From Escherichia phage FFH2: a DNA stretch of 64,000 nucleotides. Location: the sequence record KJ190158; one strand, given 5' to 3'. Shown here piece by piece: positions 10,327 to 57,675 of this stretch. Every line of letters starts with the position of its first letter. Position 1 is the stretch's first letter. Made by a program: the position numbers and the translations under genes. The notes beneath the pieces were generated by a model. That model saw nothing but the letters and a program-made list of their open reading frames with translations. It did not search any database and was not told the DNA's origin.

Positions 10327-10605
10327 ATGAGCTGTGAAAAATCTTTTTTCTTTATTATTTACGGTAAAGATAACTGCCCACATTGTGTAAGAGCAAAAGA
10401 ATTTGCAGTCAGTAAGGGTCTGCCTTTTGTATATAAGACACTTGGCGAGGGTTACACAAAAGAAGAGCTTATTGAGAAGTGCAGTCCAATCGTACCCAGA
10501 ACGTTGCCGCAGATCTTCTTAGAAAGTAATCTTGAAAGTGTCCATATAGGCGGTGCCGACGATTTCATCTCTTTTGTTAAAAATGGTTTTGGAGAGAAAA
10601 AGTGA
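10327..10605 (+). CDS. Glutaredoxin/thioredoxin-like redoxin
   Basis: CPHC redox motif in a 92-aa protein inside the nrd cluster. Confidence 0.7.
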   Translation: MSCEKSFFFIIYGKDNCPHCVRAKEFAVSKGLPFVYKTLGEGYTKEELIEKCSPIVPRTLPQIFLESNLESVHIGGADDFISFVKNGFGEKK

Positions 10606-11462
10606 AAGTTGTAAAACGGGACGGTAGAGAAGAGTTCTATAACGGAATTAAGGTGATCAAGGCGGCAGAGTCCGCCTTACTTGAGTCTGGACATACTGAA
10701 GAAGAAGCTTACCGGATCGCCTGCGCGGTTAATGAAGTTGTTGCTAACAATCTACCAACCGACCAGTGCACGATCTCTGTAAAAAATATCCATATCCTTG
10801 TTGAAGACGCTCTTATGGATATGGGTTTAAAATGTGCAGCCAGAGAATACATCCAGTATAGGCAGACAAGAGATAATAACAGAGAGGCAGGTGGAAAACT
10901 GCTTGCAGATATTAGTGGCTTCTTGGATCGCACTTGTGATGAATTTACAAAAGAAAACGCAAATAAGCCTACCAATCATGTACACACTCATCGTGACCTG
11001 CTTGCAGGCATCCTTAGCAAACACCTTGCATCAACACAGATCCTGACAGACCGTGTCTCAGAAGAGCACAATAAAGGCTTCATCCATGTGCATGATCTTG
11101 ACTACTTGATCAGTCCGTTAACAAACTGTTGTTTGGTAAATTATCCAGATATGTTGGAAAACGGATTCAACATTGGTAACGCCCATGTCAGTAAGCCGAA
11201 GTCAATAGGGGTTGCAACAACAATCCTTAGCCAAATCTCTAGTGCAGTAGCTAGTGCTCAATATGGAGGTCAGACTATGAGCCATATTGATCATTATCTG
11301 GCACAGTATGCTGAAGCGACCTATGAGAAGAACCTTAAATTTTGCCAGGAACATTGGTTGCCAGATGCTGAGACTGTTGCAATGCAAATGACAGATAAAG
11401 ACGTATTTGACAGCATGCAGACTTTGCTCTATCAAATCAATACGTTAACCTCTGTCAACGGT
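10602..11462 (+). CDS. nrdD: Anaerobic ribonucleotide reductase NrdD, exon 1
   Basis: ATP-cone VVKRDGREE; ends ...NTLTSVNG matching NrdD ...NTLHTANG before conserved QTPF. Confidence 0.8.
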
Positions 11463-12260
11463 TAACAAACTGGCCGTTGTAAAACTCTCCTAACCTCATA
11501 AGAGGGGTCGGTAAATCCGGCTAACGGGGAACGCTAAGGCGAAAGCTATGCCAATCCCGTGACTAGTTCTTACAGGAGTTGGAACGGTTGTAACGACTAA
11601 CGAAAGGCAGAGATGCTTGACAAACATTTCTGAACCAAGTAGTGTAGAGGTTAGTTGAAATACTAACTTCGAAATGGAGAGGCTCTATGAAAAAGATCAT
11701 TCTTAATGGTGAAGAATCAAACTATGTGATTGATGAGGTTGGAAACGTATACGGAAAACGTGGAATGCTACACCCAATATTGTGGGGAGGTTATGGAAAA
11801 GGTAACAAGCATGTTAAACGCCGTTATATGTACTCTTTCAACCACAAAGGTAAAAAGATTCGAATCCAAACCTCAAGGATTGTTGCCTTGTATTGTTTGC
11901 CAGATGTCCCAGAAGACCCTGAAAACTGGGAAGTGAATCATAAAGACGGCAATACATTGAATGATCATCCGTCTAACCTAGAGTGGGTTTTGCCGGAAGA
12001 TAATAAGAGACATGCTTTCCGAACAGGGCTTTGCCCAGGCAAGTGCTATAGGAAAGTGCAGGCATACAAAGGGAAAACCTTGGTGGGTGAATATCCTTCA
12101 CTCTATGCCTGTGCAAAAGCCTTAAATTTGAACGTAGGTAACGTTCATAGGGCTATCGAAGGAAATGCCGAAGGTAAGCATCTCACAATAAAGGGTTATT
12201 ATCTTATTGAAGTAGAGTAAGAGATAGTCTGGCCCTGTGGAAACACAGGGGAGGAGACAG
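11463..12260 (+). mobile_element. Group I intron interrupting nrdD, carrying an HNH homing endonuclease ORF
   Basis: Exon 1 ends on U, insert ends on G, splicing restores in-frame NGQTPF; P7-like gactag/tagtc pair; in-frame stop at intron start. Confidence 0.7.
11687..12220 (+). CDS. HNH homing endonuclease (intron-encoded)
   Basis: EVNHKDGNTLNDHPSNLEWV HNH motif; ggagagg RBS. Confidence 0.75.
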   Translation: MKKIILNGEESNYVIDEVGNVYGKRGMLHPILWGGYGKGNKHVKRRYMYSFNHKGKKIRIQTSRIVALYCLPDVPEDPENWEVNHKDGNTLNDHPSNLEWVLPEDNKRHAFRTGLCPGKCYRKVQAYKGKTLVGEYPSLYACAKALNLNVGNVHRAIEGNAEGKHLTIKGYYLIEVE

Positions 12261-13523
12261 CAGACTCCATTCATCACATTAAGTTTAGGACTGGATACCT
12301 CGGTCTTTGGTAGAATGATTACCAAAAATTACTTGAAAGTCCACAAAATGGGTCTTGGTGAAGAACGTATCACACCTGTGTTCCCTAAAGTGCTGTTCTT
12401 CCTAGAAGAGGGTGTCAACATGAACCCTGGAGATCCTAACTATGATTTGAAAAGATTGGCTCTGGAATGCTCTGCAGAGCGGATTTATCCTGACTTTGTT
12501 TCTGTTCCACTAAATCGTAAAGTGACAGGCTCGACAGATGGTAAAGTAACGAGCATGGGTTGCCGGAGTTTTCTTAGCAAATACAATGACTTGGAAACAG
12601 GCGAGGAGAAATACCTTGGCAGATTTAACTTAGGCGTTGTTAGCCTTAACCTGCCAATGATTGCGGCAAAAGCTAAAACGGAAGGTGTTGATTTCTTTGC
12701 AGTTCTTGACGAATACTTGGATCTTGCATACGAGGCTCACCTTGTAAGGGTTAACCGTCTAAAAGGAACAAAGGCAGGGCAGAACCCTATCATGTGGTGT
12801 GAAGGCGCTCTTGCTCGCCTGGATCCTGAAGAGAGTATTGATAAACTCTTCTATGACGGGTACGCTTCCATCAGTATTGGGTATATTGGTGTGTATGAAA
12901 CCTGTCAGATTTTGGGCAGAGAGGGTGACAAGGCTTTAGCTCTTGGAATCCTTCAGCACATGAAAGATGCTTGTGAGCGATATAAGAAGGAAAGTGGACT
13001 AGCATTTAGCTTGTACGGCACCCCTTCTGAGAGTTTATGCTATAAAGCTGCAACCTGTCTGGATCGTGAATATCCAGAAGTGTTGAAGCACGAGCATGAA
13101 TACCTCACCAACAGTTTCCATCAGCCAGTATGGATCAATAGTTCACCTTTTGATAAGTGGAAGTATGAAGAAGGTTTTGCTATGATCTCTTCTGGTGGCA
13201 ACATTGGATATATAGAGACACCTAACCTGAAAAACAACCTGGATGCTTTAGAGGCTCTTGTTGACTTCGGGTATAAACACATTATGTATTTTGGTATTAA
13301 CCAACCTGTGGATAAATGTCTCAAGTGTGGTTTCTCTGGTGAGTTCAGTGCAACAGCTAAAGGCTTTGTATGCCCAGAGTGTGGAAACCATGAAGAGGGA
13401 ACGATCAGTGTAATTCGACGTGTGTCCGGATACCTTTCCAGTCCTAACTCCCGTCCTTACAATAAAGGTAAGCAAGCGGAAGTTATCGAGCGAGTTAAGC
13501 ACTATGGAAGTTGTAGTTGCTGA
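12261..13523 (+). CDS. nrdD: Anaerobic ribonucleotide reductase NrdD, exon 2
   Basis: Begins QTPFITL; C-terminal Zn-ribbon CLKCG..CPECG and glycyl-radical motif RRVSGYL. Confidence 0.8.
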   Translation, partial: QTPFITLSLGLDTSVFGRMITKNYLKVHKMGLGEERITPVFPKVLFFLEEGVNMNPGDPNYDLKRLALECSAERIYPDFVSVPLNRKVTGSTDGKVTSMGCRSFLSKYNDLETGEEKYLGRFNLGVVSLNLPMIAAKAKTEGVDFFAVLDEYLDLAYEAHLVRVNRLKGTKAGQNPIMWCEGALARLDPEESIDKLFYDGYASISIGYIGVYETCQILGREGDKALALGILQHMKDACERYKKESGLAFSLYGTPSESLCYKAATCLDREYPEVLKHEHEYLTNSFHQPVWINSSPFDKWKYEEGFAMISSGGNIGYIETPNLKNNLDALEALVDFGYKHIMYFGINQPVDKCLKCGFSGEFSATAKGFVCPECGNHEEGTISVIRRVSGYLSSPNSRPYNKGKQAEVIERVKHYGSCSC

Positions 13524-29527: not shown

Positions 29528-30841
29528 TAAGTTCTTCTCTTTTCTTTTACCGAGTAATTCGGGTTTTCTGTTCTCTTCGGTTTGAAGGGGTATAGAGATA
29601 CACCTGAGTGAACAGGGTGAACAACCGAACATTTGGCTATGGCATTAGCATGGCGAAGCGGACGGGTGACGAAAGAGGGGCCGGAGGACACCAGTCACTG
29701 CCATATGATATATGGGTGATAACCTGAAGAGTCTGAATAAGTGTTTAAGTACCAGTCAGAGGAAAAGGTGAATGGTAGCCGAAGGGGGAGGGGGGTTTCT
29801 TGTATCTTTAATTTGTATATTATGTATACACTTGTAAACCAATCTCATCTGAATTTGTTTACCACACAAAGTGGATAGGGACAAATATTACCTATTAAAC
29901 TTGAATTATTTATAGAAATACCACAACACCACTTAAGTCTTTGATTTTACACACAAATCCTACAGATATTCACCCTCCATATTTAACATACCTGTAACAT
30001 ATTCCATACCCTACCTGACCGATCAATTCACCCAACTACATCCCCATATTTTCCCTGTCTGTACTACCCCTGCCCCGCCGGGAGTCCCGTCATATCTGGC
30101 TTTCCAGCAAATATCACACCCACAAATATCATTGCCTGAAGAGGGTTTCATCCCATAATACATGCCTTACCTGAAGAGCGCTTCATACACCACGTAAATT
30201 TTTTAATTGACCCCCTCCCCGCCGCCGGAGAGGTTGGCTTTTCCCACACAGACCTGAAGAGTCAGCCAGAAATATCTGAACAGGTCCAGCTATGCCACGA
30301 TTTTGTGCTTGTCCTACAGGAGTGCCTCCCTGTCAGGAGCCGGTAGCGACTGGAGTGCTGCCAGGCGGACGAAATGGGAATCATTCTCATTCTTATAACA
30401 ATTCTCAAATATCGAGGCAGTGAGGCAAATTAATAGGTGAGGCCGTTCACACAATGGCACAACATTTGCAACCTATCTTGTGGGAGTGAATGAGAATACC
30501 TATCATTGTGAGAATAGTTATCATTACGGGCAATTTAACATAATACCCATTATGCGCACCACTGGCGATCCATACAGGGATTGATAACATGGGTTACTGT
30601 TTACACACATAACAATTATATTTCTTACTATTTGTGTGGGATATAGTTAGCAGCCGATAGATTAGATATTGACCTGTAGACTTCCAACCGTCCAGACGTC
30701 TAAACGCCCACACAACAAGGGTTATACATACACAACTGAATGTAAACAGGGCCGCAAAAATGCTACCATACAAGCTTGTAAATTTTTCATGCAGCACTTG
30801 ACAAAGAGGAGGAAAACTTGTCTGACACTTTAGACACAATA

Positions 30842-30888
30842 GTGACATAATATGACATAATGGTGACACTGAACATAATTGACATGCC
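30842..30888. repeat. Tandem 10-bp iterons (G/A)TGACA(T/C)(A/T)AT
   Basis: gtgacataat-atgacataat-ggtgacactg-aacataattgacatgcc. Confidence 0.55.
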
Positions 30889-30992
30889 TGACTGTTTACA
30901 TAGCTAACTATTCATACAGAAATGATAAGCCATGCCATTCGTTTGCATGATAATAATTAACTTGTTTACAATAGATGACATAATATAAAAGC

Positions 30993-31025
30993 AGGGCAAC
31001 TATTAGAAGATCTATAGTTGCCTTG
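30993..31025. repeat. Near-perfect palindrome around GGCAACTAT / ATAGTTGCC
   Basis: agggcaactat-tagaagatc-tatagttgccttg; 9-mer recurs at 31052 and 31159. Confidence 0.55.
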
Positions 31026-31774
31026 CTTGTTATGTCATGATTAACTAAATACAAGGCAACTATGATCTGATTAATAGTTTGCAGACAAACTATCACGGGG
31101 GTGATGGTTACTGCTTTTATATTATGTCGCGACTCCGTCGCGCCATGCCATTCGTTTGCATAGTTGCCTTATTGTTACAGATAAAATAATTGTATTGTTA
31201 ATTATTTCTTATCTTTCTCTTAGTCATCTAATGATTCCAGTCAGTATAGTAATGTACAGTAAACATTAGACGACTAAAGATTTCTCTGTTTATTATAACT
31301 TACCGTGACAATTTCAGGCTGTTTACGAAAAATGTTGACACCTGGGCCGATTTATGTTATGCAGTTTACACGAATAATTATTTTATGCAGGTATTGACTA
31401 TTCCGTTATTCTATGGTTGGAATAAATACTTAGCAGACTATAGAATGGTGAGCGTACGTAAATTCTGAGATCTGGCGGCTATAGTTATACTCGATTTTTC
31501 ACGTAGAACACGCTTTTGTTAGTGTGTAAGTGTATGACTTATAAAGATTTTTAGTTGTTGACAAGATATTGAAGATGTGCATCAGGTTAAATTTTGTGCA
31601 ATAGCGGCATTACGTGCAATTTTGAGAGAGAAAACGGGTAAAAATGGCCTTGCTATCACACAATGAAAAATTATGCAATAGTTATTTTACATGTATGTTT
31701 GTACAGTGTGTGGGATTGATGGCTAGTCAATTATTCCACTTGCCAGGCTGGGCCGTTTGTGGTAGGAGAAATAC

Positions 31775-31806
31775 AGACAAAAAGAAAGGGGCCTTTTAAA
31801 GCCCCT
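31775..31806 (-). terminator. Intrinsic terminator for leftward cluster
   Basis: aggggc..gcccct stem followed on minus strand by ttctttttg. Confidence 0.55.
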
Positions 31807-42627: not shown

Positions 42628-43231
42628 AAAATTCTAAATGAGAACTCCTCGCATTTAATAAATTTAATTAGCACGCTAATTACACTCCGTAACAATTTAC
42701 TATAAAATAGTATCCACTAAAATATTCCCATATAGAAATTTTAAAAATCCATTTCTGAAAACGAAAAATCGATTTCGTCCCTAAAAATTTCAGGCCTAGA
42801 TCCGGAACGATTTCCAGAAAATCCGATTCAGAAAACGAAAAACAGATCGAGTACTGAGAAATTTATCGAGAAAAATTTTCAGAAAATCCAAGCCCTGAAA
42901 TGAAAAGTAGATCGAGTACCTGGAAAGCTGCACCGCAACTTCAAGATAGTGGTTAGATTGTTACCATAGAAGGTCAAGGGTAAGTGGAGGAAGTTCTAGT
43001 AGAGGGAGGTTAGCATGTGTGGGAAATCTATAATGGTGGCCTGGAATATAGTGCAAACGATAGGATGAGTTATTCAGCTTGTCGCGCCTACTCTGAAAAA
43101 TCCATTTTAGTTTTCGATCCATTTTCTGATTTTCTAAGAATTTTAAAATATCCGGCCCGGTGAAATATCAAAAGGAGGAAATCCATTTTAGAAATCCCCC
43201 TTATACTTGATATGCCAGGAATTTTCAAGTA

Positions 43232-43561
43232 TCAGCTGTCTTTGTTTTTAGGTTTGTACATGCGCAGAGGTATGGTCTTTGTAACATTCCATTTCCTCAA
43301 CCCTTCCCAGCTCCAGTTGTGGGCGTGATACCCGGTTATGCATGCACTGCTGGCGTGATCATAAGCATAAGAGAACGCTATGTGCACCAGGTGGGGCCAG
43401 TCCTTCCACGGCTGTGGACCGTAAGCCTTTCTCCAACACCGACACAAACTAATTGTCTCAAGAATAGGGAGAATAACAATTCCATATACCACCACCAGAA
43501 TGGTCAGTGCAATGATTGTCAGGAACACATACCCTGCAGTTGAAATGATGATCTCTGTCAT
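43232..43561 (-). CDS. Membrane protein
   Basis: N-terminal TM segments IIISTAGYVFLTIIALTILVVVYGIVILPIL. Confidence 0.5.
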   Translation of the reverse strand: MTEIIISTAGYVFLTIIALTILVVVYGIVILPILETISLCRCWRKAYGPQPWKDWPHLVHIAFSYAYDHASSACITGYHAHNWSWEGLRKWNVTKTIPLRMYKPKNKDS

Positions 43562-43761
43562 TTGTCGTCCCCTTTCTTACGAATATAGATGTGAGAGCCT
43601 GCCTGTATATAAATTTCTCGACCATCCTCTGCAAAGATATGAAATACACGATCACCTTCGTACTCGATACGAGATATCTTCATAATGGTCTTTCCACCTG
43701 GGATACGGATCTCGTCCCCCACAGCGATGTTCCATGCAGATTTAAGCTTAAACATCTGCAC
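43558..43761 (-). CDS. hypothetical protein
   Basis: RBS aaggaggg. Confidence 0.45.
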   Translation of the reverse strand: MQMFKLKSAWNIAVGDEIRIPGGKTIMKISRIEYEGDRVFHIFAEDGREIYIQAGSHIYIRKKGDDK

Positions 43762-43993
43762 CCTCCTTTGGGAACTTGAACTCTGGCATAGCCATATACG
43801 CTACAACAGGGTTGTGATCAAAGTAGAACTGACCGTTAATTATCCCGGTTTTGTCCACATAGTTACCAGATCCTGCAAGAACAACCTCGCAAGCTCCGAA
43901 ATCCACATTGCCATTCTCATCTGCCATGGCTACAATATACTTTCCTAGAGGCATGTTTTTAACGCCGTCTACAAATGTCCACCCTTTGTTCAT
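43748..43993 (-). CDS. hypothetical protein
   Basis: RBS aggagat. Confidence 0.45.
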   Translation of the reverse strand: MNKGWTFVDGVKNMPLGKYIVAMADENGNVDFGACEVVLAGSGNYVDKTGIINGQFYFDHNPVVAYMAMPEFKFPKEGADV

Positions 43994-44014
43994 AACTTTA
44001 TCTCCTGGACTTTC

Positions 44015-44347
44015 TTAAGGTAACCAGTAAACAATTTCGCCTTTCAGTTCCATGTCGTTACCGACATAGATTTTCCAGCCATCCATTTTAGCCACTGCAG
44101 GAGTGAAGTCCGAAGAACCACTAACCTCTTTCCAAGTCCCGTAGTCAGGTTGCCAGATATAGAATCCACCTTCCTTGTCCCATGCTCCATATACCACATC
44201 GAGCAGGTTGCCCATTGCAACAATAGTAGGCCGTGGGAACAATGCATCTACAGATGCGCCACAATATCTAGTATCTTTTAAATTGCACTCCCAAAAGATG
44301 TCTGCCAGTGTGGCGGCGATAGCTTTACGTCTTTCTAATGTTACCAT
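44015..44347 (-). CDS. hypothetical protein
   Basis: ORF only. Confidence 0.45.
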   Translation of the reverse strand: MVTLERRKAIAATLADIFWECNLKDTRYCGASVDALFPRPTIVAMGNLLDVVYGAWDKEGGFYIWQPDYGTWKEVSGSSDFTPAVAKMDGWKIYVGNDMELKGEIVYWLP

Positions 44348-44354
44348 ATCATAC

Positions 44355-44546
44355 TCACTTGTTGTTGATAAGTTCTAAAACTTTCTGTCTTACTTTGTCA
44401 AGGTCTGTGGATTCAAAAACTGTACGATATCCCCAACTTTGCCCATAGGAGTGACTGCAATCCCCGTAGCACCATTGCTCAATTTGATAGTATTCAAGGA
44501 ACGGGTGCTGTCTAACTATGATACCATCCCGGTTAAAAATTACCAT
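44355..44546 (-). CDS. hypothetical protein
   Basis: ORF only. Confidence 0.4.
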   Translation of the reverse strand: MVIFNRDGIIVRQHPFLEYYQIEQWCYGDCSHSYGQSWGYRTVFESTDLDKVRQKVLELINNK

Positions 44547-44609
44547 AATACATCACTCTCTGTTAGTTTATGCATATATTATACACTGCAGTTTTCAGAT
44601 GTCAATCTT

Positions 44610-44804
44610 TTACAGGTTACTCCAGTATAATCGGCATTTACATTTTGGGCAATAAGGTTCTTTTATGTAATAACCATCAGTCTTTGGAACACTTTTTGGT
44701 GCAGTTTTAAGATTGTACCTGGTAAAACATCGGAAGCAGGTTACCTCTCCCACCTGTTGATCGTTGATCCACTCACCAGAGTAAAGCTCTTTCTTGTTTC
44801 TCAT
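44610..44804 (-). CDS. Small C4 zinc-ribbon protein
   Basis: ATG 44804 after gggagag; CFRCF..CPKCKC. Confidence 0.45.
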   Translation of the reverse strand: MRNKKELYSGEWINDQQVGEVTCFRCFTRYNLKTAPKSVPKTDGYYIKEPYCPKCKCRLYWSNL

Positions 44805-45054
44805 AATTCTCTCCCAAATCCTCTGCAATCTTATACCAAAATCTCCAGCCAGAAAGCACACGGGAACACTTTGAGGATTGAATCTTTACTTGGCTCGGAA
44901 GTTCTTTTTCCGTATGGTAGGTAGAAATACCCTCCTGCAGACTCTAACACAGCCCCTTCGGTTGTATCTATCACAGCCAGAATTAAGATTTTAGTCTCCA
45001 TAGTGCTCCCTCTCTCAATCGTTGTGGTGACTATACCATCTCAAAAACCAGCTG

Positions 45055-45552
45055 TCAACACTTTTTGTACTCCACCACGATAATATCCATATCAAAAGTG
45101 GCAAGGTTAATAACGTCCTCTACGTGCTCCCACTTCAAACCGCCTATGCCGCACCCGATCTTAGGGATGTAGAATGGTAAAGTCGATCCACTGAATACCT
45201 CATTGACTAGCTCAAAGCCTTTCAGGATTGAGAAATATTCAGCATTAGGTCCTGGGTAGAACTGAGTATACAGATTGATTCCGTAGACAATACCTCTCGG
45301 AGATAAGTGCTCCCATCGGGAGAACGCACCCAGTTTACTTAGGCAACCATGTCTGGTCTCTTTGTCAGCTGCCAATGCTTGAGGGAACTCACGGGCAATC
45401 TGTTTTGCTATCCCCTTGCCCATTGTGTGGAAGCAGTTACAACCGTGGATCAGGTGACCAGCACCACTCTTAAAAAGGGAGATTAAATCTCCCTCTACAG
45501 TATCAATAATCACGGTATGCCAGCTCCTCTTCCACAATTTCAAAAAACTCAT
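45055..45552 (-). CDS. Macro-domain protein (ADP-ribose binding/processing)
   Basis: GDLISLF..HGCNCFHTMGKGIAKQI and IPKIGCGIGG fit macro-domain Gly-rich motifs; start ATG 45552 assumed. Confidence 0.55.
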   Translation of the reverse strand: MSFLKLWKRSWHTVIIDTVEGDLISLFKSGAGHLIHGCNCFHTMGKGIAKQIAREFPQALAADKETRHGCLSKLGAFSRWEHLSPRGIVYGINLYTQFYPGPNAEYFSILKGFELVNEVFSGSTLPFYIPKIGCGIGGLKWEHVEDVINLATFDMDIIVVEYKKC

Positions 45553-45928
45553 CCCAACCTTGTGGCATATTTGAGTTACCGAAGTGGCTTTCATAGTAAA
45601 GGTTCTTACCGCTAGGAAGGTAGAAATCTGTTACCTCATAAAATCCACAATCGTCGCACTCACCTTCTTCAAACTTGGCCTTAACCTTAATACCGAGGAA
45701 GGTGAAAAGTTTATGGACATCTTCAGTTTCGAACTCCCAGGGAATGTTGTTTTCCGCATCGGTGTAGAACTGGATCAGCAGACCATTGTCCAGTTTACCA
45801 AAATACTCTGTGAAGTAACTTCCTTCCCAGAAATCTTTATGACAAATAATATCCATGCGTTTGCCCATAATAATGGTGTGAGCGTTTTGGGCATCGTCAC
45901 GAATCAGTTTTGGCATTTCATAGATCAT
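45503..45928 (-). CDS. hypothetical acidic protein
   Basis: ORF; overlaps macro-domain start. Confidence 0.45.
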   Translation of the reverse strand: MIYEMPKLIRDDAQNAHTIIMGKRMDIICHKDFWEGSYFTEYFGKLDNGLLIQFYTDAENNIPWEFETEDVHKLFTFLGIKVKAKFEEGECDDCGFYEVTDFYLPSGKNLYYESHFGNSNMPQGWDEFFEIVEEELAYRDY

Positions 45929-45996
45929 CTTAGTTCTCCGGGTTCAACAGGTGGTGGCGCTACAGGAAGATCATAAAACATAGCTATCACAGTCTC

Positions 45997-46194
45997 TTAC
46001 ACAGGAATTGCTTCAAACAGGCCGTTATCTATACCGTCCTTCAGATAGAGATTATATTCTATGTCGGTATCTGTGTAAAGGGCAGCATCCAGCATTCTAT
46101 CTGTGAGTCCATCCATTGGGTGGAGAAACCACCACCCACGCCAGTCAAAGTAACAGCCTGGTGCATCTTCTCTTACACGGATTCGATAAATCAT
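45997..46194 (-). CDS. hypothetical protein
   Basis: RBS aggaggcc. Confidence 0.45.
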   Translation of the reverse strand: MIYRIRVREDAPGCYFDWRGWWFLHPMDGLTDRMLDAALYTDTDIEYNLYLKDGIDNGLFEAIPV

Positions 46195-46290
46195 GGGCAG
46201 TGGCCTCCTGTTAGTTATACATCCCAGTTTTCTTCGTTCATCACGTCCTCCCGTTCTATGAAGTTATAATTGCACACCTTTCAACCTGTG

Positions 46291-46707
46291 TCAACAGAAA
46301 ACTTCAACAAATTCTTCCACAGTTTTAATGTCGTGGGAAAAAGGTTTACGGCTATAACGGGCAATAGCACTATCAACCACCGCCCGGTACTCTAAATCTT
46401 CAGAGTATTTCATGAAGCATTGTAGCGTCTCTGGACAGATAGCTAAATAGCTCCACCACCCCTCTTCAGATTGGTAGTCGAATCCCATACTCTCCAACCA
46501 TGAAGCGTACACACCTGCACCCTCTAGCCAGTGGGTATTTTCATCAAGAAATTTATTCACCGACATGTGTGCTTCCAGGCACTCGTCAAGCTCTTTTCCG
46601 TTAACCAGCCATGCACTGACTGTGGCGCATCCGAGGTCTACAGATTGAGTTGACAGGTTGTATTGGTCATAGTTCTCAGGTTTAACAATGATATCTTCTA
46701 ATGTCAT
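46291..46707 (-). CDS. hypothetical acidic protein
   Basis: RBS aaggagatctgaaa. Confidence 0.5.
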   Translation of the reverse strand: MTLEDIIVKPENYDQYNLSTQSVDLGCATVSAWLVNGKELDECLEAHMSVNKFLDENTHWLEGAGVYASWLESMGFDYQSEEGWWSYLAICPETLQCFMKYSEDLEYRAVVDSAIARYSRKPFSHDIKTVEEFVEVFC

Positions 46708-46721
46708 TTTTCAGATCTCCT

Positions 46722-46754
46722 TATACAAAAATGCCCCACCCTTTCGGGCAGGGC
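46722..46754 (-). terminator. Intrinsic terminator gccctgccc-gaaa-gggtggggc plus T-run
   Basis: 9-bp stem with GAAA tetraloop followed by attttt after SSB stop; identical copy at 58445-58474. Confidence 0.6.
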
Positions 46755-46769
46755 TATGTTAACTAGATG

Positions 46770-47996
46770 TTAAAACGGTATGTCATCATCAAAGGCGTAC
46801 TGTGCTGGATTCTGATCCATCGGGTCATCTTCCTCATCATTTACAGGAGGAGCGTCTACAGTGTTTTGCTGTGGAGCTGCTTCCTGTTTGGCAGCCTGAG
46901 GTTCTTGATGGTCAGTTGACCCAGCACCGTTCTTGATCCAATCGTACAACGGCTCAGCCAGATTAGTCAAGACATCTTTTGCTTCTGCAGTAATTGCCAC
47001 TGCAAAATCATCAACTTTCGTTTTCTTGTCAATACGGCGACAAGCGTTCAACACCGCATTACCGACACTGGCACCTACTTCATCTTCAGTTCGGTTGGTG
47101 GCTTGAGCATACTCTTTCTTAAGCTCAATGGTGACTACGTGCAGTGTTTTAGCCACTCCCAGTGGGTCGTCTACCTTAAACCCGCGATCCAGGATGATCT
47201 GCAACGCATTGATGCTATGCCCCGTTTCCACACCGATAGGGTCGTAAGAGGATTTACGCTTGCCACCAGATCCTTGAGTGCCGTTCTCTGCCTTAGGGGG
47301 ATAGGCCTTGAAACCACTGATAATGTTTCCGGTGTCTTTGTCAACAATGGCTGCAACACGACCACCTACCACCAGGTCTTTAAGCTGCTCATCAGTTACA
47401 ACCATAGCACCTTCGCCAATCTTGTGGTCATTAACAGTAACCACGTTGCCAACAATCTGAGTCACATCACCATAGATGCGTAAAACGTCCTGATTGGCAT
47501 TCTGCTGAGGTTTCTGCTTCTGGCCTTGTGATTGTGCACCTTGTTGCTGTTTTTGCTGCTGAGTCGCTGCTGGAGCCTCTCCTGCACCCAGCTTAACCAT
47601 CTTAGCCAGTGAGCCCTTGTAATAGGTCTTACCGTTATGCTCGTTTGCCTTCAAAGGGATATTTACGATCCATCCTGGCGTTACGGTTTCCCACTTGTCA
47701 TCAATCTTAACAGAGACAGAGTCTTGATGACCTGGTTTAAGCAGCTTATCACCCATGCTGATCCAGACTTCTTCACCACCTTGAAGCAGGTTATCAGAGG
47801 AATCCAGTTCAGAAATCAGTAAAGAGATGGTGTGGCTGGATTCAATTTTCTTACCTTGCCACACAGTGGTTTTAATACCTGTTGTAGGATCAGCACCTTT
47901 AATAGGCTTGATGCTAACACGTTTAATCATGCCGTGAGCTAGTAAAACAGTTTCACGCGGATTCATTGGGTTAGCGAATTGTTGAATAACGCTCAT
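46770..47996 (-). CDS. ssb: ssDNA-binding protein with SSB-type acidic C-terminal tail
   Basis: Ends DDDIPF identical to E. coli SSB tail; Gln/Gly-rich linker; N-terminal domain not assigned. Confidence 0.6.
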   Translation of the reverse strand: MSVIQQFANPMNPRETVLLAHGMIKRVSIKPIKGADPTTGIKTTVWQGKKIESSHTISLLISELDSSDNLLQGGEEVWISMGDKLLKPGHQDSVSVKIDDKWETVTPGWIVNIPLKANEHNGKTYYKGSLAKMVKLGAGEAPAATQQQKQQQGAQSQGQKQKPQQNANQDVLRIYGDVTQIVGNVVTVNDHKIGEGAMVVTDEQLKDLVVGGRVAAIVDKDTGNIISGFKAYPPKAENGTQGSGGKRKSSYDPIGVETGHSINALQIILDRGFKVDDPLGVAKTLHVVTIELKKEYAQATNRTEDEVGASVGNAVLNACRRIDKKTKVDDFAVAITAEAKDVLTNLAEPLYDWIKNGAGSTDHQEPQAAKQEAAPQQNTVDAPPVNDEEDDPMDQNPAQYAFDDDIPF

Positions 47997-48361
47997 TATT
48001 TGTCTCCTTGTTCTTCGTTAGTGCTTGCCGTGTGTGCGAACCCTGCTTGAATTAATTTGTCCTGAACTTGAGCCAACAGGCCCATTGCAAAACTTGTGGT
48101 CCCAGAGAGGGCCATCAGCATATCCCGTTGTTGAGCTACCCAACCTAAGGCATAGTCCAAACGACGATATTTTTCTTCTTCACGCAGAGCCTGAAATAAT
48201 TGTTCAGCCTCCGGTTGTTGTGTGAGCTCCTGAAGTCTTCCCATGAAAGAAGAAAGCACTAGCAAAAGAGACACTTGATCTTTACTTAACCCTAAGAAAA
48301 ATTCTTGAGGTTGTTCTTGCTCGTTCATCGCAACCGACTCTTGATCGTTCATTTGTTCCAT
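47996..48361 (-). CDS. hypothetical protein
   Basis: Stop overlaps SSB start. Confidence 0.45.
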   Translation of the reverse strand: MEQMNDQESVAMNEQEQPQEFFLGLSKDQVSLLLVLSSFMGRLQELTQQPEAEQLFQALREEEKYRRLDYALGWVAQQRDMLMALSGTTSFAMGLLAQVQDKLIQAGFAHTASTNEEQGDK

Positions 48362-50055: not shown

Positions 50056-50427
50056 TCAATGGCTATTTTCAATCAGCCACACAGGGTCGAGGTAAATTTG
50101 TTGGCGTGTTGCCCAATGACAAACTTCATTGTACATCTGAATCTCTTTGTCCGTCAGTTCACGAATAGGCTCATCTATACCCTCATTTTTGTGGTAATCC
50201 CAGTCGGCATCGATTTCCCACAGCCATGACTTGTTGTCACCACGCTTACGCACACAGAAGTCACCGGGACGGCCTGCCAATGCATTTAAGAACTCGTTCT
50301 CCGCTCGCTCTTGGAGAATACTAAGGAGCAAAACGTTAGAACATGACCGTAGAATATGCTTCAGCTCACAATCATCAATCTCAACTTCAATACGTTGTTT
50401 GACTGTGTGGGTACCTTTTACTAACAT
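50056..50427 (-). CDS. hypothetical protein
   Basis: ATG 50427 after gaggagg. Confidence 0.45.
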   Translation of the reverse strand: MLVKGTHTVKQRIEVEIDDCELKHILRSCSNVLLLSILQERAENEFLNALAGRPGDFCVRKRGDNKSWLWEIDADWDYHKNEGIDEPIRELTDKEIQMYNEVCHWATRQQIYLDPVWLIENSH

Positions 50428-50437
50428 CCTACCTCCT

Positions 50438-50632
50438 CTAAACGAACTCTGCAAGGGTTGTGTTGTTCACTGCACCGCAGTAAATGGAGTATCCCAGCCC
50501 ATTAGAGTGCAGAAACCACGGCGTTCCGAAATTATCTTTCACGTAGACATCGCCGTTGCTTGTAAAGGGCCAATATTCTTCGCCAAGGGTAAAATACCTA
50601 CTCATACCTTCAGCAAGATACTTTACTTTCAT
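50438..50632 (-). CDS. hypothetical protein
   Basis: ORF only. Confidence 0.4.
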   Translation of the reverse strand: MKVKYLAEGMSRYFTLGEEYWPFTSNGDVYVKDNFGTPWFLHSNGLGYSIYCGAVNNTTLAEFV

Positions 50633-50856
50633 AGGTCCTCTTCTACAGCTACAAACTTGGCAAGCAGGGTGGTTCCGTAGATATGATACTCACCGTTTGC
50701 CAGATGGGAGATAAACCAGGCAATCCCTTCCTCGTCTTTAATCATCTTGTTTGCACGATTTTTATCGTAATAAACCTCGTAGGTCTTTCCTTCTTTAAAG
50801 AATGACAGGTCTGTCATCTTTTCTTCTACAAAAGTAGCTTTAACCAAAGTTGTCAT
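50629..50856 (-). CDS. hypothetical protein
   Basis: ORF only. Confidence 0.4.
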   Translation of the reverse strand: MTTLVKATFVEEKMTDLSFFKEGKTYEVYYDKNRANKMIKDEEGIAWFISHLANGEYHIYGTTLLAKFVAVEEDL

Positions 50857-51170
50857 TGATCGGTCTCCTTCTTGTTAAGTCTGAATACTGCAATAATAAC
50901 ATTCCCAAGGTGCAGTGTCAAATCATTTCCAAGATACCACAACATTCCACGGTCATCTTTGATGAAAGGGTAACAATCTGGTGCCTTCCAGACATTGTAC
51001 ACTTTCCCAACCTGAAAGAAATCAGGCCCTGTTGGGATTTTGGTACCAGGCCACACTTGAGATACCTGAACACACTCCACCTGCATAATAACAGGGATAG
51101 TCATAGATGTAAATGTTTTTGTTGGTTCTACTACCATAAAAGTCTCCTCTTTGCTCAACAACACTTCCAT
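50853..51170 (-). CDS. hypothetical protein
   Basis: ORF-track GTG start 51227 would overlap polymerase exon 2; ATG 51170 chosen, no clear RBS. Confidence 0.3.
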   Translation of the reverse strand: MEVLLSKEETFMVVEPTKTFTSMTIPVIMQVECVQVSQVWPGTKIPTGPDFFQVGKVYNVWKAPDCYPFIKDDRGMLWYLGNDLTLHLGNVIIAVFRLNKKETDQ

Positions 51171-51540: not shown

Positions 51541-52383
51541 CATCTGTTCAGGTAGGTCGTTAAGCTACCCCGCACCATTACGTGCATAGCCATACAGTTT
51601 CCTGTATGGATCGGACTACCTCACTGCCTTGGTAACAAGGCACCTCCCATTTCGACCGCACTTGCTGGCCTACTCTACTCGCTTCTTCACACCAACCTAT
51701 GTTGGAGCTATGCTTTCGATAGTCTCTGAACGTTACTACCAGGTGTAGTTTTTAGAGATATGTTTCCACTGTCTTCTTTGCTTTATAGCCCTGACGGTCT
51801 CATAAGGATATCCAAGATCCCTAATCTCGCATTGTCGTAGACCACTCTGCAACAGTTCGCAAATCTCTATTACCTCATCTTCTGTCAGCACAGCGTTAGC
51901 ATTATACTCACCAACTGGCCTTACTCTGAGGTCATTATCATAGGCGTGCTTGATATTTCCACCAGGGGTGGTCCATTCTAGGTTCCAGTATGCATTGTTG
52001 TACTTATTCCCATCCTTATGGTTCACCCATGTGAGTCTTTCAGGATCTGGGTTTGATACAAAGCATTCAGCAACCAGGTGGTGGACACCTTTTGTGCACT
52101 GCTTCCCCTCGATTAGCATGGTTACGCAAAGGTAACCTCTACCATTATCAAAACAAAACATTGTTGTATGATCACGTTTCGATAAAGGTATTGTTCCATC
52201 ATCAAACACGGTATACCCGTGATAATCAGCTGTTCTAGCCATTTTAACTACACCCCTTTAGTCTTCGCTGCGGATTAGCATATTGAGCTTTTACCATACT
52301 CAGGTGTAAAAGTCAACTTAGCTTCCCCGTCAATTAAAGAGGTTATTCGACATAGATTACTCTATGAAGCCACAATGTTATTT
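51541..52383 (-). mobile_element. Group I intron in DNA polymerase gene, carrying an HNH homing endonuclease ORF
   Basis: Insert splits HDE motif; exon 1 ends on U, insert ends on G; agacta/tagtc P7-like pair in 195-nt 3' core. Confidence 0.7.
51736..52242 (-). CDS. HNH homing endonuclease (intron-encoded)
   Basis: VNHKDGNKYNNAYWNLEWTTPGGNIKH HNH motif; RBS aaagggg. Confidence 0.7.
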   Translation of the reverse strand: MARTADYHGYTVFDDGTIPLSKRDHTTMFCFDNGRGYLCVTMLIEGKQCTKGVHHLVAECFVSNPDPERLTWVNHKDGNKYNNAYWNLEWTTPGGNIKHAYDNDLRVRPVGEYNANAVLTEDEVIEICELLQSGLRQCEIRDLGYPYETVRAIKQRRQWKHISKNYTW

Positions 52384-54807
52384 ATGGTAATAAATAATAC
52401 GACGAACACCTTCATCGTACCACCCACGCTTCACCATTTGGTGGTGCATGAGTATCCCAACTAAGTCACACAACGATGCACCACCATTTTGTTGGTATGC
52501 ATTAAGTAAAGAGTGTTTAGATCGGGTCCAGATGGCATGACCATCAAAAGAGTAGATAAACTTCTTACCCGTTGCTTCCCAGAATTTCTCCAGATCCTCT
52601 TTACGGCCCTTAAGACCAGGGTTGGCATCCCAAAGCGCATCGATTACCCTTTGTCCCAACTCTGGAGAGATGTCCAGCATATCTGCAACTTTATCTTTTT
52701 GTGCCCCGTACATAACCCCATACGTGATAGGTTTACCGTCGTTACGGGACACCTCTCTGCCTGCTACTTTTGTATATGCCTCAGCATTGTTTTGGTGTGC
52801 GTCTCCGTTACTTACAACATCATAATACAAGCCGTTGTCGAACTCAAAGGCACCCCAAGCCCCGATAAGCTGCTCTAAGTTGGACCCGTCAATACCGATC
52901 TCAAAGTATCCAGGAGGAACACCCCACAGACTACGCATCTCTTTACCCATAACCACTTTAGGAGATGGTTTAGGCATGTTTGCACAAATACTGTGTTTCT
53001 GTCTGGAAGTGTTTGTTAATCCAGAGCTTTTAGCAGGAAGCTTATGGTCAATCTTCAAACGTGGGTGATTAAGAAGACCAGTGTCAACCTTATCCTCCTT
53101 GATTGGATCAAGTACCGATCTGCGGTTTCGCAATGATAACCATAAGACGATATCTTTAGCCATCTCTCCGTTCAATTTTTCAAGATTCGGACACAGGTGT
53201 CCAAACGTATCTTTCAGTTGCGGAGAAGTAATAAGTGCCCTAGCTTTTCTACGTATTTTCCCGAATACTTCCTTTTTAATCCTTTCGGAGTTAGGAAAGC
53301 TTCGGAACTTGTGCACTGTTGTCTGAAACTTAGCATCAGTTTTGTTCCAGAAGTTGATAATTAGGTCACAATACTCTGACTCTAAAAGCTCGTCCATGTA
53401 TGCATATACTCGTGCATCAACATCTGCATCAGGTAGAGCTTTCTTCTTGCTGTCTTTAGTTACATCCTTAGTTCTCCACATTGTCGGAAGCCAACCAGCA
53501 CTGATCAGGTATCGCTTAATGTCGTCCTGATTGCTGATTTTCATAGGTATCTTGCAGTCAGGCATTCGCTTCTGCTGCAGATCGCTTATTGCCTGATCCA
53601 TCAGCTCTTTAGGCAAAGGTTGTGGTGTGGAGGTGCCCTTAATATAGCCTCTCAAGAAATCAGCCATCTTATCGTGGTCTTTGCAGCCCATCTCTTCACA
53701 CCATTTTATCCCCATTTTACTGACATCTCCTGTGGAGGTAAATGCTCGCTTAGGTGGGGCTTTGAACTCTAAAGCGCTCATGTCTACAGGATAGCCAAGC
53801 TTATCTTTTAACCATTTCCAACCATTATTGGAGATTGTCCCATCTTGGTTAAACGGCTTTTCAGGGAACTTGGGCCGCTGAGACATTGACAGCTCTTTTA
53901 AAGGTAGTTGTGGTTCAACACGATCAGCTATTTCTTTCATCCACGCATCGCAACGGTCACGTAAAGCAATAGCCCCGTCTATGTCGAAATACACACCCTG
54001 ACGGGCCTGCAGCTCCATCAGGAAGTGCTGCAGCATGCCTCGACGTAGTGCGTTCTTCCAGGTGATCTTCTTGAACCCTTTCGGCTTCTCTTTGGCTGGA
54101 TCGTACATAAAGTTCTGCATGTCAGATTTGCCGTAGAATACACCTTTTGATTCCGCTACCAGCTCTTTCCAGAGCAGCTCCTGGATGATAACGTCCTCGA
54201 ATACACGATCCACATACTTCCACAACGGAAGATCGCGCCAGTCATCAATTTGAACTTTCTGGTTACCAAGGGCGTAGCCCCATGCCATAAGGCCGTGAGG
54301 ACCAACAGGCTGCATTTTCTTAGTAACCGGGTTGAATACAGAGTCCGGACAACCTTTTGGTAAAGGGCGATCAGGCCACAAGATTCGGCTCATCGCCAAC
54401 GTATCAAACAGGTTAACCTGGTGGTCGTTGATAGTCCCCATACATTTAGGATCACGGAACATATCAAAATGAATACCGGATAATCTCTCCATCAGCATAA
54501 AGTCATAACTGTAGCAGTTATGGCAGTTCAAAGCTGTTGGTGACCAGTCGGAATTGCCTGTAAGCCAACCCTCCAACTCCGAAAAATCTGCTATGCGAAC
54601 TTCAAAATCCTTATAAAGAGTTTTCTTTGCCAGAATAAAGTTCTTAGCCTTCTCTATATCCTCCTCGGAGTAGTGTGTGCGGTCATTTAGAGGAAGGAAC
54701 AGCATAAAACGGTTCTTATTCAGCTCTTTAAACAGGCCGCAATGATAATAAAGATCTGGGTCTTCCAAAAGCCCTGAGGCCTCCAGATCGAAGCACCAAT
54801 TACTCAT
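52384..54807 (-). CDS. DNA polymerase family A, exon 1 (3'-5' exo and polymerase motifs A/B)
   Basis: Exo I CFDLEASG; motif B KPITYGVMYGAQ; region QQNGGASLCDLVGIL..KRGWYDEG aligns with T7 pol just upstream of HDE. Confidence 0.8.
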
Positions 54808-55538
54808 ACTGTCTCCTCCTGTGTCTTCTCAGCATTCTTTCTTGCAGCTATTGCATCGTCCCTGTTCTTGAAATACCCAAGGCATTTCCTTTTACCATCT
54901 ACATGAATTCTGGCTACCCATCTTTCATGGGTTTTATCCCAATTCACCCCTGAGCAACCGCTGGTGTTATTATACTGCACGGCTCTTCCACTCTTGTGCG
55001 AAAAACCATTATCTTCGAAGAACTTTCTTGCCCACTCTGCCTCTTCAAAAGTTCTGTACTGGCCTAGCCAGACCCTTTCACCTACAGAGTCTGTGCCTTG
55101 AGCTACCCATGCCCCTCTTTCTTCAGAATAGTGCACCCCGACCCTGCCAGATTTGTTGTTGCTACGAGGTATCTTGCAACTTTTCTTTTTGTTATCTGTA
55201 GGTTCGAGTAGTTGCAAATTATGAATACTGTTGTCAGCCACACCACCTGTTTCCCTTATCTCCTTGATGTGGTCAACCTCATACCCTTCCGGTACAGGAC
55301 CGTTAAACATTTCCCAGATTATAACGTGGGCACCTTTAGTGCAATGCTTTCCTAGACTAACCACAGGCCTGCCATCAGCATCTTGCCCCTTGTCAGCTCT
55401 GGAGCCTGCTGAAGTTTTAACATATCCTACACCGCTGCCTGCCAGAATGTCTATCTTCCAAAAAAGATTTTGACCGTCATACTCCAATATTTCTGACCAC
55501 AAGTGATTAGCTACACAGTGATCTCTGAACTCGTTCAT
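54804..55538 (-). CDS. Free-standing HNH endonuclease with AP2-like DNA-binding repeats
   Basis: YEVDHIKEIRETGGVADNSIHNLQLL HNH; two GV(H/N)..ERG/W..WVA AP2-like repeats. Confidence 0.65.
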   Translation of the reverse strand: MNEFRDHCVANHLWSEILEYDGQNLFWKIDILAGSGVGYVKTSAGSRADKGQDADGRPVVSLGKHCTKGAHVIIWEMFNGPVPEGYEVDHIKEIRETGGVADNSIHNLQLLEPTDNKKKSCKIPRSNNKSGRVGVHYSEERGAWVAQGTDSVGERVWLGQYRTFEEAEWARKFFEDNGFSHKSGRAVQYNNTSGCSGVNWDKTHERWVARIHVDGKRKCLGYFKNRDDAIAARKNAEKTQEETV

Positions 55539-55596: not shown

Positions 55597-57675
55597 TTAA
55601 AAAGGTGTTTCATCATCCTCAAAACCAGGGACCGGATCAGAGGATGGATCATCGTATTGGAGGTCTTCCTGCGTGTCAATAGGCTTGACAGTGGGTGTTA
55701 CAACCTTATCAGCCACAACCTTGCCCATAGGTGTTTCTACAACTGCATGCTCTTGATCCTCAAACATAGCCTGAGGTCTCCAAACAACCTCCCCACCTTC
55801 TCCGTCTGTAAACATTTGCATTTCTTTGTCCCAGTACCAATTACTGGCATCATGGAACTTACCTGTGTGCGGGTCCATAACTAAAGTGTCAGCAATACCT
55901 AAAGTTTTTGCTGGACGGTTCTTAAGACCTACCAGACGGACACGTCCACGAGAACGATCCACCATTTCTTCGGCCTCGACACCTATGACTACCCAACTCA
56001 ACTGTTCAAGCCCAGCCGATCCTCGCAAATTCTCTTTTCGCACAGGATACCAGAAAGGTAACGGGTTACCATCTTTGTCCTTAGGAGGCACAATCTCTGT
56101 ACGTTTGAGGTGAGCGATCACCAAGATAAACACGTTAAACTGCTTACAAAACGCAGCCAGTTGGGTCATAGCCATGTCCAGTTCTTTTCGCTCATCCTTA
56201 ACATTAAGCCCTGAAATTACCATGGACAGGTGATCCAGCACAATATAACGACAATAGTACAGGCAAACCATTTGCTTAAGCTTGGTAATCAACTCGTCCA
56301 CCGGAATAGACCCGAAATGTTTGAACACTTTGATTTTTCCAGCTTTTGCCCATGATTGGTGAATCTCTGCGTGTTCTTGATCAGTTAAAAACTGGCTAGG
56401 ATCTTCAACAAACTCTTTAACATCAAACCCTAACTGGTTTGCATACAAGGAGTTAATTGCTTCCTCTGGATCCTCCTCAAGATGGATCATGCATAGACGA
56501 TCATCCTCTTCATAGTCATCGGCCTTCGGGCATGTCGGGTCCATTAAGTATCTTGCAATACAGTGTTCCAGTTTTTTAGCCACGGTTGTTTTACCGCCGC
56601 CTGATGGACCTGTAAGCATTACGAGTGTCCCTTTGTGCAAGCCTTTTAGCATTTTTTGCAGTTTTGGGAACTCTGCACTGATATCTACCCCGTTGGAAGT
56701 CTTTTTCCGCAAAGACTCGATAGAGAAGTCTTCTAAATCCGACACAGCATCAGGCACATATTTAACAGGGTGCCGGAACATGTTGACAATATCTTCCAGC
56801 TTTTTAGCCTTCAGCATGTCTCGGATATCTTTTACACCGTCAGGGTCATTTACTTCACCAGGGTATTCTACGTGGTAAACGTTATCAGCCATCAAAAATG
56901 CTGCGATATTGTGCGTGGCCTCAACACCTTTAATGACGTGTTTTTGCTTCTCTACCTCGTTAGCTGCATCGTTATCCATTGCCAGCACAACTGTTCCATA
57001 GCTACGGATAAACTTCTCATTGTTTGCAAAAGTATCTACTGCGTTTGCACATCCACAGTTAATTCCAACAAAAGGCAGGCAGGGTTTTCCTGCCAGATCA
57101 CCACCGTTGATAACTGCGTCGATCCCGTCCTGGACCTCTTTAGCCCACTGCTTCACCTTTGCCGGGGCTTTAGCGTTGGTGAGAATCCCTTTTACTTGTA
57201 TCTGATATGCAGCCTGCCATGCTGCAATAACATCACCTTCTCCCTCACAAACGTTAATCTGCTTACGGTTGTTGGAAGATGCACACAGCTTTTGACCAAA
57301 CATCTGGGAGTTGGCCTTTACGATGCCAACAACGGAGAAATGGCCCCTTTGCTCTTTAGGAATAGTCCAGTCACGCTTTTTGAAACCAGACAGATTTCCG
57401 TAGCGGTCGTAATATGGGAAATATGTTGCAGTGACTGTCACACCGTCTTCTTGGGACAATGCTGATCGCACACCAAAATATTGTGCAGCCATCAGACCGA
57501 TATTTTGTTGTGGGACAGGGACAATTTTAGTATTTTCTAAAACAGTCTCTACAGTTTCAACTTCTTTTTCATCACGATAGTCTCGTTTCACACTTCCCCC
57601 ACTTTTATACTTAGTTGCTTTCGGGTTTGGCTCACCGAAACGGTTGTATGCAGATGCCATAAATTTACTTCCCAT
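55597..57675 (-). CDS. Primase-helicase (T7 gp4-like)
   Basis: Walker A LTGPSGGGKTT in C-terminal helicase half; N-terminal primase-like half; start may be ATG 57660. Confidence 0.75.
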   Translation of the reverse strand: MGSKFMASAYNRFGEPNPKATKYKSGGSVKRDYRDEKEVETVETVLENTKIVPVPQQNIGLMAAQYFGVRSALSQEDGVTVTATYFPYYDRYGNLSGFKKRDWTIPKEQRGHFSVVGIVKANSQMFGQKLCASSNNRKQINVCEGEGDVIAAWQAAYQIQVKGILTNAKAPAKVKQWAKEVQDGIDAVINGGDLAGKPCLPFVGINCGCANAVDTFANNEKFIRSYGTVVLAMDNDAANEVEKQKHVIKGVEATHNIAAFLMADNVYHVEYPGEVNDPDGVKDIRDMLKAKKLEDIVNMFRHPVKYVPDAVSDLEDFSIESLRKKTSNGVDISAEFPKLQKMLKGLHKGTLVMLTGPSGGGKTTVAKKLEHCIARYLMDPTCPKADDYEEDDRLCMIHLEEDPEEAINSLYANQLGFDVKEFVEDPSQFLTDQEHAEIHQSWAKAGKIKVFKHFGSIPVDELITKLKQMVCLYYCRYIVLDHLSMVISGLNVKDERKELDMAMTQLAAFCKQFNVFILVIAHLKRTEIVPPKDKDGNPLPFWYPVRKENLRGSAGLEQLSWVVIGVEAEEMVDRSRGRVRLVGLKNRPAKTLGIADTLVMDPHTGKFHDASNWYWDKEMQMFTDGEGGEVVWRPQAMFEDQEHAVVETPMGKVVADKVVTPTVKPIDTQEDLQYDDPSSDPVPGFEDDETPF

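Follow-up and report, generated by a model that had tools for sequence, protein, structure and literature searches.

A T4 Tk.4/AdfM-related macrodomain gene in Escherichia phage FFH2 with a probable role against DarTG2

The macrodomain gene and its surroundings

The DNA that we analyzed (the window) is a stretch of 64,000 nt from the ~137-kb genome of Escherichia phage FFH2 (KJ190158). Over positions 44000-47000 it was 95-96% identical, along the full length, to more than 100 Vequintavirus (rV5-like) myophages of E. coli, among them HdK5, O157 typing phage 14 and APECc02. The open reading frame with both of the Gly-rich motifs highlighted in the initial annotation is on the minus strand, with its TGA stop at 45055-45057. 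Small ORFs on the same strand form a long series around it, and a replication module that also holds a methylase and a PIF1-like helicase lies about 7 kb upstream. The features of this region are as follows.

45055..45513, minus strand: most likely macrodomain coding sequence, 152 aa, GTG start, TGA stop; Vequintavirus homologue of T4 Tk.4/AdfM
45524..45529, minus strand: Shine-Dalgarno-like GAGGAG, 10 nt upstream of the GTG, invariant in the window, HdK5 and rV5_ev147
45514..45552, minus strand: N-terminal extension from ATG 45552, probably untranslated as part of the macrodomain protein, within the 3' end of the upstream gene
45503..45928, minus strand: upstream gene, 141 aa, PHROG 8157, function unassigned; 11-nt overlap of its stop with the macrodomain start
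46051..46079, minus strand: sigma-70-like promoter TTTACA-17-TATAAT (11/12, consensus match only), nearest upstream of the two-gene unit
46754..46733: terminator-like hairpin
46770..47996, minus strand: gene for a 408-aa protein (PHROG 4477, function unassigned) with no Pfam match, a Gln/Pro-rich linker and the end ...QYAFDDDIPF
52378..54807, minus strand: family-A DNA polymerase ORF, 809 aa, replication module
55597..57675: DnaB-like helicase, replication module

In its longest form the reading frame extends from an ATG at 45594 down to the stop and encodes 179 aa, and the initial annotation had the gene begin at the ATG at 45552. We rejected this second start: in HdK5 (96% identical) the codon is CTG, and translation from it would produce a 50-nt overlap with the upstream gene. 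Our analysis favored the GTG at 45511-45513 instead, because this codon and the GAGGAG upstream of it are unchanged across three vequintaviruses (window, HdK5 and rV5_ev147), and because homologues down to 39% identity, including T4 Tk.4, share its first residue (MII/MIV...). The orthologues in the HdK5 and rV5_ev147 records are annotated as 459-nt coding sequences at the equivalent position. Judged by these comparisons, the true coding sequence is most likely 45055..45513, encoding a GTG-initiated, slightly acidic protein of 152 aa (14 Lys plus Arg, 16 Asp plus Glu). Nei-Gojobori dN/dS values of 0.09 and 0.12 against HdK5 and rV5_ev147, respectively, showed that it is a real protein gene under purifying selection.

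Several Vequintavirus records already label the orthologous gene as a 'macro domain protein' or 'phosphatase'. In phage vB_Eco_Alma (3835..4428), a downstream 171-nt ORF mistakenly bears the label 'Putative macro domain protein', and the true macrodomain gene is called as a 369-nt coding sequence named 'Phi92_gp185', which is 90 nt short of its 459-nt orthologues and corresponds to a start at an internal Met31. Among the relatives of positions 44000..47000, several vequintaviruses carry ~600 bp, annotated as endonuclease VII or homing endonuclease, that the window does not have. Sixteen records named 'Campylobacter phage' also match this region at more than 90% identity (e.g., MG065635, phage C12, host C. 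jejuni, at 96%); their host labels are probably wrong, or the phages are contaminants.

The 11-nt overlap between the stop of the 141-aa gene and the macrodomain start suggests that the two genes are probably co-transcribed and translationally coupled. Promoter-like sites were more frequent in positions 43000-48500 than in shuffled sequence (18 vs 10.1 +/- 2.8), and these consensus matches fit early transcription by the host polymerase. The placement in a replication/early block that had been proposed for the gene is consistent with this picture, as it lies among small minus-strand ORFs and sigma-70-like promoters, downstream of the polymerase and helicases. The ten flanking ORFs matched only PHROGs of unknown function and no Pfam family, and we therefore identified no functional partner among these neighbors. 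Furthermore, none of the 30 ORFs searched with Pfam within the 64 kb of the window, these ten and 20 further medium and large ones, contained a NADAR/AdfN, ART, Nudix, Tpt1 or other NAD/ADP-ribose domain.

Other features of the window were also recorded. The DDDIPF end of the 408-aa protein corresponds to the acidic C-terminal tail of E. coli SSB; the protein is a candidate SSB of the phage, or a mimic of the SSB tail, and could recruit host proteins that interact with SSB or compete for them. An ORF-poor region of ~2 kb (~29600..31800) between divergent plus- and minus-strand gene blocks contains repeated GGCAACTAT/ATAGTTGCC units at about 30989-31028, 31055 and 31160-31177 as well as a 20-nt direct repeat with exact copies at 30929 and 31142; it may serve as an origin or regulatory region. 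On the plus strand, the gene for the anaerobic ribonucleotide reductase is apparently split into ORFs 10602..11465 and 12237..13523, with an HNH endonuclease ORF (11687..12220, Pfam HNH_3) between them; nrdD of HdK5 is a single gene of 2124 nt, which suggests an insertion of the homing-endonuclease or intron type. An ORF for an endonuclease with HNH_3 and AP2 domains (54804..55538, minus strand) adjoins the 809-aa polymerase ORF, and the HdK5 polymerase has 925 aa; a mobile endonuclease may have inserted in or beside the polymerase gene.

Fold, class and the ADP-ribose pocket

The protein matched the Pfam Macro family (PF01661) with 27.7 bits and an E-value of 2.7e-6, above the gathering score of 22 bits, and matched PHROG 335 ('phosphatase') with an E-value of 4.7e-59 over residues 23-178 of the 179-aa ORF. 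A database search returned 93 homologues, nearly all of them on phage-sized contigs or in metagenomes. An AF2 model built with an 81-sequence alignment (pLDDT 96.7, pTM 0.91) has a three-layer alpha/beta/alpha macro fold, and its Foldseek search of the PDB gave 173 matches at E <= 0.001, which among the matches listed were all macrodomains or designed proteins. TARG1 was the top match (E 2.6e-10, TM 0.78/0.85), followed by Poa1p, the DarG macrodomains of T. aquaticus and M. tuberculosis, BT1257 and SCO6735; TM scores to the solved macrodomains of TARG1, Poa1p, DarG and SCO6735 ranged from 0.72 to 0.85. The family profile searched against the PDB gave M. tuberculosis DarG (1e-16), SCO6735 (2.2e-16), BT1257 (4e-16) and TARG1 (1.3e-14), and the best single-sequence PDB match was M. 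tuberculosis DarG (2.6e-7). In BFVD the leading fold matches were a Marseillevirus protein with an SNF2-subfamily annotation and Tk.4 of Acinetobacter phage 133. The macro-domain identity given in the initial annotation thus stood, by profile as well as by fold. On the predicted structure, the protein is a stand-alone macrodomain of the ALC1-like class, with TARG1, Poa1p, DarG, BT1257 and SCO6735 as its nearest structures.

We also considered and rejected membership in the DarG antitoxin family itself. The NCBIfam (NF048014) and PADLOC DarG profiles gave weak scores of 47-49 bits, and the NCBIfam match (47 bits against a cut-off of 250) covered only profile positions 3-141 of 338; the protein has neither the C-terminal domain nor the catalytic Lys of DarG.

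Alignment of 81 homologues revealed three conserved motifs, with the consensus HGCNCFHTMGAGIA, NLYTQFxPGP and IPxIGCGIGG. Their positions in the window, assigned from the family alignment and from alignments to known macrodomains, are as follows.

45406..45447, minus strand: motif HGCNCFHTMGKGIA, residues 23-36, with His23, Asn26 and the first Gly-rich loop (G32-x-G34) of the putative ADP-ribose pocket; family alignment and alignments to DarG, SCO6735, TARG1 and Poa1p
45247..45276, minus strand: motif NLYTQFYPGP, residues 80-89, with the invariant Gln84; alignments
45139..45168, minus strand: motif IPKIGCGIGG, residues 116-125, second Gly-rich (putatively diphosphate-binding) loop; alignments

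The IPKIGCGIGG motif was present exactly as it had first been described. The other Gly-rich motif was also present, and only its spacing had been misread: the actual sequence is GDLISLFKSGAGHLIHGCNC, with six rather than four residues between the Leu and GxGH. Eight residues (G24, N26, G34, A36, N80, Q84, P117 and G120) are invariant among the 81 homologues, and N26, G32/G34 and G120/G122/G125 are invariant or more than 90% conserved. Asn26 and the Gly loops align with their equivalents in DarG, SCO6735 and TARG1, Asn26 corresponding to N22 of T. aquaticus DarG, N23 of PhiKZ AdfM and N27 of SCO6735. The sequence features of an ADP-ribose pocket, a conserved Asn after strand 2 and two Gly-rich loops, are thus present by alignment.

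The catalytic Lys of Lys-type ALC1-like macrodomains (DarG K80, TARG1 K84) was absent from all 81 homologues, in which its position is occupied by the invariant Gln84, the counterpart of SCO6735 Gln85. Asp125 of the TARG1 Lys/Asp dyad is also absent from the protein: GCGLDRLQW of TARG1 aligns with GCGIGGLKW, which places a Gly there. With Gln84 plus His23 and Asn26 of its HxCN motif, the protein carries the residues that mark Gln-type ALC1-like macrodomains.

Phage relatives and the proposed function

By tblastn, homologues were found in 2,781 of 50,697 phage records, most of them from large myophages that infect enterobacteria, Vibrio, Pseudomonas, Acinetobacter and Aeromonas. The gene matched in T4-like genomes is tk.4. 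T4 Tk.4 aligned end to end (residues 1-150) with 39% identity (E 2e-40), and Tk.4 of phage PP01 was 43% identical. The window protein and T4 Tk.4 belong to the same PHROG-335-type family, are of similar length (152 aa here, 155 aa in T4), and share the motifs HGCNCFHTMG, NLYTQ-PGPN and IG-GIG, in which Gln takes the place of the Lys. Each is a small protein that stands alone and is encoded in a block of small non-structural genes of a large virulent E. coli myophage. They differ in lineage (Tevenvirinae for T4, Vequintavirinae for the window gene), in the upstream neighbor, which is the 141-aa gene here and vs in T4, and at Cys121 and Gly125, which are Ala and Lys in T4. The 163-kb Enterobacteria phage GEC-3S (NC_025425) has a copy at 50405..50857 that is 68% identical to the Vequintavirus protein; in view of the 39% identity of T4 Tk.4, this suggests lateral gene exchange between large myophage lineages.

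In a recent preprint, tk.4 was the single hit when a T4 transposon library was challenged with DarTG2 (HIDEN-SEQ), and a clean tk.4 knockout was DarTG2-sensitive, for which reason the gene was named adfM, for anti-DarT factor macrodomain (bioRxiv 10.1101/2025.11.20.689424). There, removal of ADP-ribose from DNA by T4 AdfM is a proposal based on genetics, and a second library is described in Bas54, a Vequintavirinae phage. Earlier work had found that T4 without adfA and adfN remains DarTG2-resistant (PMC11825919). A second, DarG-like phage macrodomain, gp104 of PhiKZ, independently received the name AdfM; it was shown to clear an oligonucleotide in vitro of the ADP-ribose added by DarT2, and it protects chimalliviruses (PMC13309987). 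ICP1 AdfB was examined as a possible relative and rejected; with its 77 aa it mimics the C-terminal domain of DarG and is no macrodomain. In the literature on the Vequintavirus macro domain and on AdfM, we found no test of the rV5-like copy.

The DarG2 macrodomain and PhiKZ gp104 resemble the window protein in fold, class, the pocket Asn (N22/N23 vs N26), the Thr before the catalytic position and the Gly loops, and DarT2-modified DNA is the proposed target of all three. However, both have a catalytic Lys (FPTK), whereas the window protein has Gln (YTQ). DarG further differs in its C-terminal DarT-binding domain and its length (338 vs 152 aa), and PhiKZ gp104 in being only about 21% identical and in acting in a phage-nucleus context that is absent here. 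The orphan macrodomains SCO6735 of Streptomyces coelicolor and BT1257 are closer at the active site, since both have Gln at the DarG/TARG1 catalytic-Lys position and a GCG-x-x-GG loop, and in SCO6735 H24, N27 and Q85 correspond to His23, Asn26 and Gln84, and K34 to Lys33. These two proteins are bacterial and only about 23% identical to the phage protein. SCO6735 undoes the thymidine-ADP-ribosylation of DNA by DarT, both in vitro and in cells, its Q85A and Q85E variants are inactive, and its proposed mechanism has a backbone-held water act while the Gln positions the distal ribose (PMC9411070). Its processivity on DNA was credited to a mobile loop bearing Lys residues (PMC9411070). SCO6735 is DNA-damage-regulated and has an electropositive groove, unlike the slightly acidic phage protein, and its mobile loop after the Gln is longer and carries two Lys (K89 and K94); the corresponding segment of the window protein (QFYPGPNAEY vs QHGMKTGSKGAPVRY) lacks Lys and falls short of this length by several residues. 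Most members of the phage family have Ala in place of Lys33.

Taking these comparisons together, we consider it probable that the protein is an early-expressed, soluble, single-domain hydrolase that removes DarT2-added ADP-ribose from phage DNA and so counters DarTG2, with Gln-assisted chemistry likely. Its substrate, timing and chemistry we infer from homologues, alignments and consensus matches. The gene would be transcribed early by host RNA polymerase from sigma-70-type promoters, together with the 141-aa gene. Asn26 and the two Gly-rich loops would bind the ADP-ribose moiety, as alignment and fold predict, and the enzyme would cut the N-glycosidic bond between ADP-ribose and thymine on DarT2-modified single-stranded phage DNA, a step modeled on the genetics of T4 and the biochemistry of PhiKZ gp104 and SCO6735. 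The invariant Gln84 in place of Lys makes catalysis of the SCO6735 type, with the Gln positioning the distal ribose for attack by a backbone-held water, likelier than the Lys-dependent type of DarG and TARG1. By analogy with the homologues, replication and transcription would be restored and the phage would escape abortive infection by DarTG2. Several findings count against this reading: the protein is only 39% identical to the T4 protein with the phenotype and ~21% identical to the biochemically characterized PhiKZ AdfM, the catalytic Lys and the SCO6735-type loop are absent, Lys33 is poorly kept, the protein is acidic, and its N-terminal motif is Poa1p-like.

The last of these findings bears on a different role, in which the protein would hydrolyze small ADP-ribose derivatives, as a Poa1p-like ADP-ribose-1''-phosphate phosphatase or an O-acetyl-ADP-ribose deacetylase that clears RNA-repair or sirtuin by-products or destroys NAD-derived immune signals or toxins. 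Yeast Poa1p is among the top sequence and fold matches (fold E about 1e-9) and shares the N-terminal HxCNC...G-G-GIA motif, and His23 and Thr30 of the phage protein align with its H23 and S30, which are mutated in PDB entries 6lfs and 6lft; only the titles of these entries point to a catalytic role. The names 'phosphatase', 'A1pp phosphatase motif' and 'Poa1p_like' in GenBank, RefSeq and PHROG agree with such an activity, but they come from motif transfer and not from an assay. Poa1p gives a lower TM (0.66-0.73) and has insertions relative to the phage protein, does not share the NLYTQ motif, and serves a eukaryotic tRNA-splicing by-product pathway with no evident counterpart here. The invariant Gln84 is common to SCO6735 and BT1257 and not to Poa1p, which we take to have Ser at this position. 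Among the 30 ORFs of this part of the genome, Pfam searches revealed no Tpt1/KptA, RNA ligase, sirtuin or other NAD/ADP-ribose domain. Iyer et al. (2022) predicted that low-molecular-weight ADP-ribose derivatives are the main targets of phage macrodomains and argued that most of these proteins act on them (PMC9503650). Nevertheless, the sole known phenotype of a family member, that of T4 tk.4, is counter-defense against DarTG2, and we regard a small-molecule role as unlikely. Of the functions suggested in the initial annotation, that against ADP-ribosylating toxins gained support from the literature on the T4 Tk.4 and PhiKZ gp104 homologues, and that against NAD-derived signals gained no specific support.

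Human TARG1 (C6orf130/OARD1), structurally the closest match (TM 0.78-0.85 at an rmsd of about 2.5 A) and likewise a single domain of ~150 aa, is a protein Glu/Asp-ADP-ribose hydrolase. This raises the alternative that the phage enzyme removes ADP-ribose from protein or RNA, either against other host ADP-ribosyltransferase toxins or to tune ADP-ribosylation made by the phage itself, with DarT2-modified DNA as a side substrate at most. SCO6735 acts on protein as well as DNA substrates (PMC9411070), and the spread of the family over 2,781 phage records points to a pressure wider than that of a single defense system. However, TARG1 is only 22-24% identical, and its Lys84/Asp125 dyad for protein substrates is replaced by Gln84 and Gly. 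Moreover, T-even phages with Tk.4 were reported to be sensitive to the mRNA ADP-ribosyltransferase system CmdTAC (PMC11618068), so that the Tk.4 family does not obviously counter RNA ADP-ribosylation. That tk.4 was the single hit of the T4 screen on DarTG2 also speaks against this alternative, to which we give little credence.

Finally, the absence of the canonical catalytic Lys could mean that the protein does not catalyze at all and acts by binding, as a holder of ADP-ribose or a stoichiometric inhibitor of DarT. In vitro, SCO6735, DarG and TARG1 inhibit DarT through interaction even when they are catalytically dead (PMC9411070). However, the Gln essential in SCO6735, Asn26 and the Gly loops are invariant in the 81 homologues, which indicates a conserved active site, and the DarG C-terminal DarT-binding domain is missing, as the length and the profile score show. 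Action by binding alone is thus highly improbable.

Beyond removal of DarT2 adducts by a Gln-type enzyme, which remains our favored reading, we entertain one rather doubtful extension: Tk.4-type macrodomains, instead of being DarG in miniature, may form a mechanistically distinct Gln-type branch with a wider substrate range, of which the Vequintavirus copy perhaps works with a partner. Such a branch could be defined by the invariant NLYTQ, in which the Thr found in DarG and TARG1 is joined to the Gln found in SCO6735. Its substrates might extend past DarT2-modified thymidine to other base- or RNA-linked ADP-ribose adducts and to ADP-ribose-derived signals, a range that would help to explain why ~5% of sequenced phage records carry such a gene. 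The Vequintavirus copy, coupled to the 141-aa protein, might act with it as a partner.

Meaning for rV5-like phages

For near-identical phages the macrodomain annotation is already in GenBank, and the role of the family was reported for T4 in 2025. Our analysis established that the window gene is real and under purifying selection, and it defined its start, its fold and class, its motif equivalences and its homology to Tk.4. The finding is sound but largely expected, and it opens no new question. A modest addition is that T4-type AdfM proteins are, by sequence, Gln-type and distinct from Lys-type DarG and PhiKZ AdfM. With Gln rather than Lys at the catalytic position, as in SCO6735, the choice of mutants and mechanisms for T4-type AdfM proteins becomes sharper. 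Altogether, a probable anti-DarTG2 function can be assigned to a conserved gene of the rV5-like phages; since such phages are in wide use for the biocontrol of E. coli O157 and in phage-therapy cocktails, the assignment helps to predict their host range on strains that carry DarTG2.
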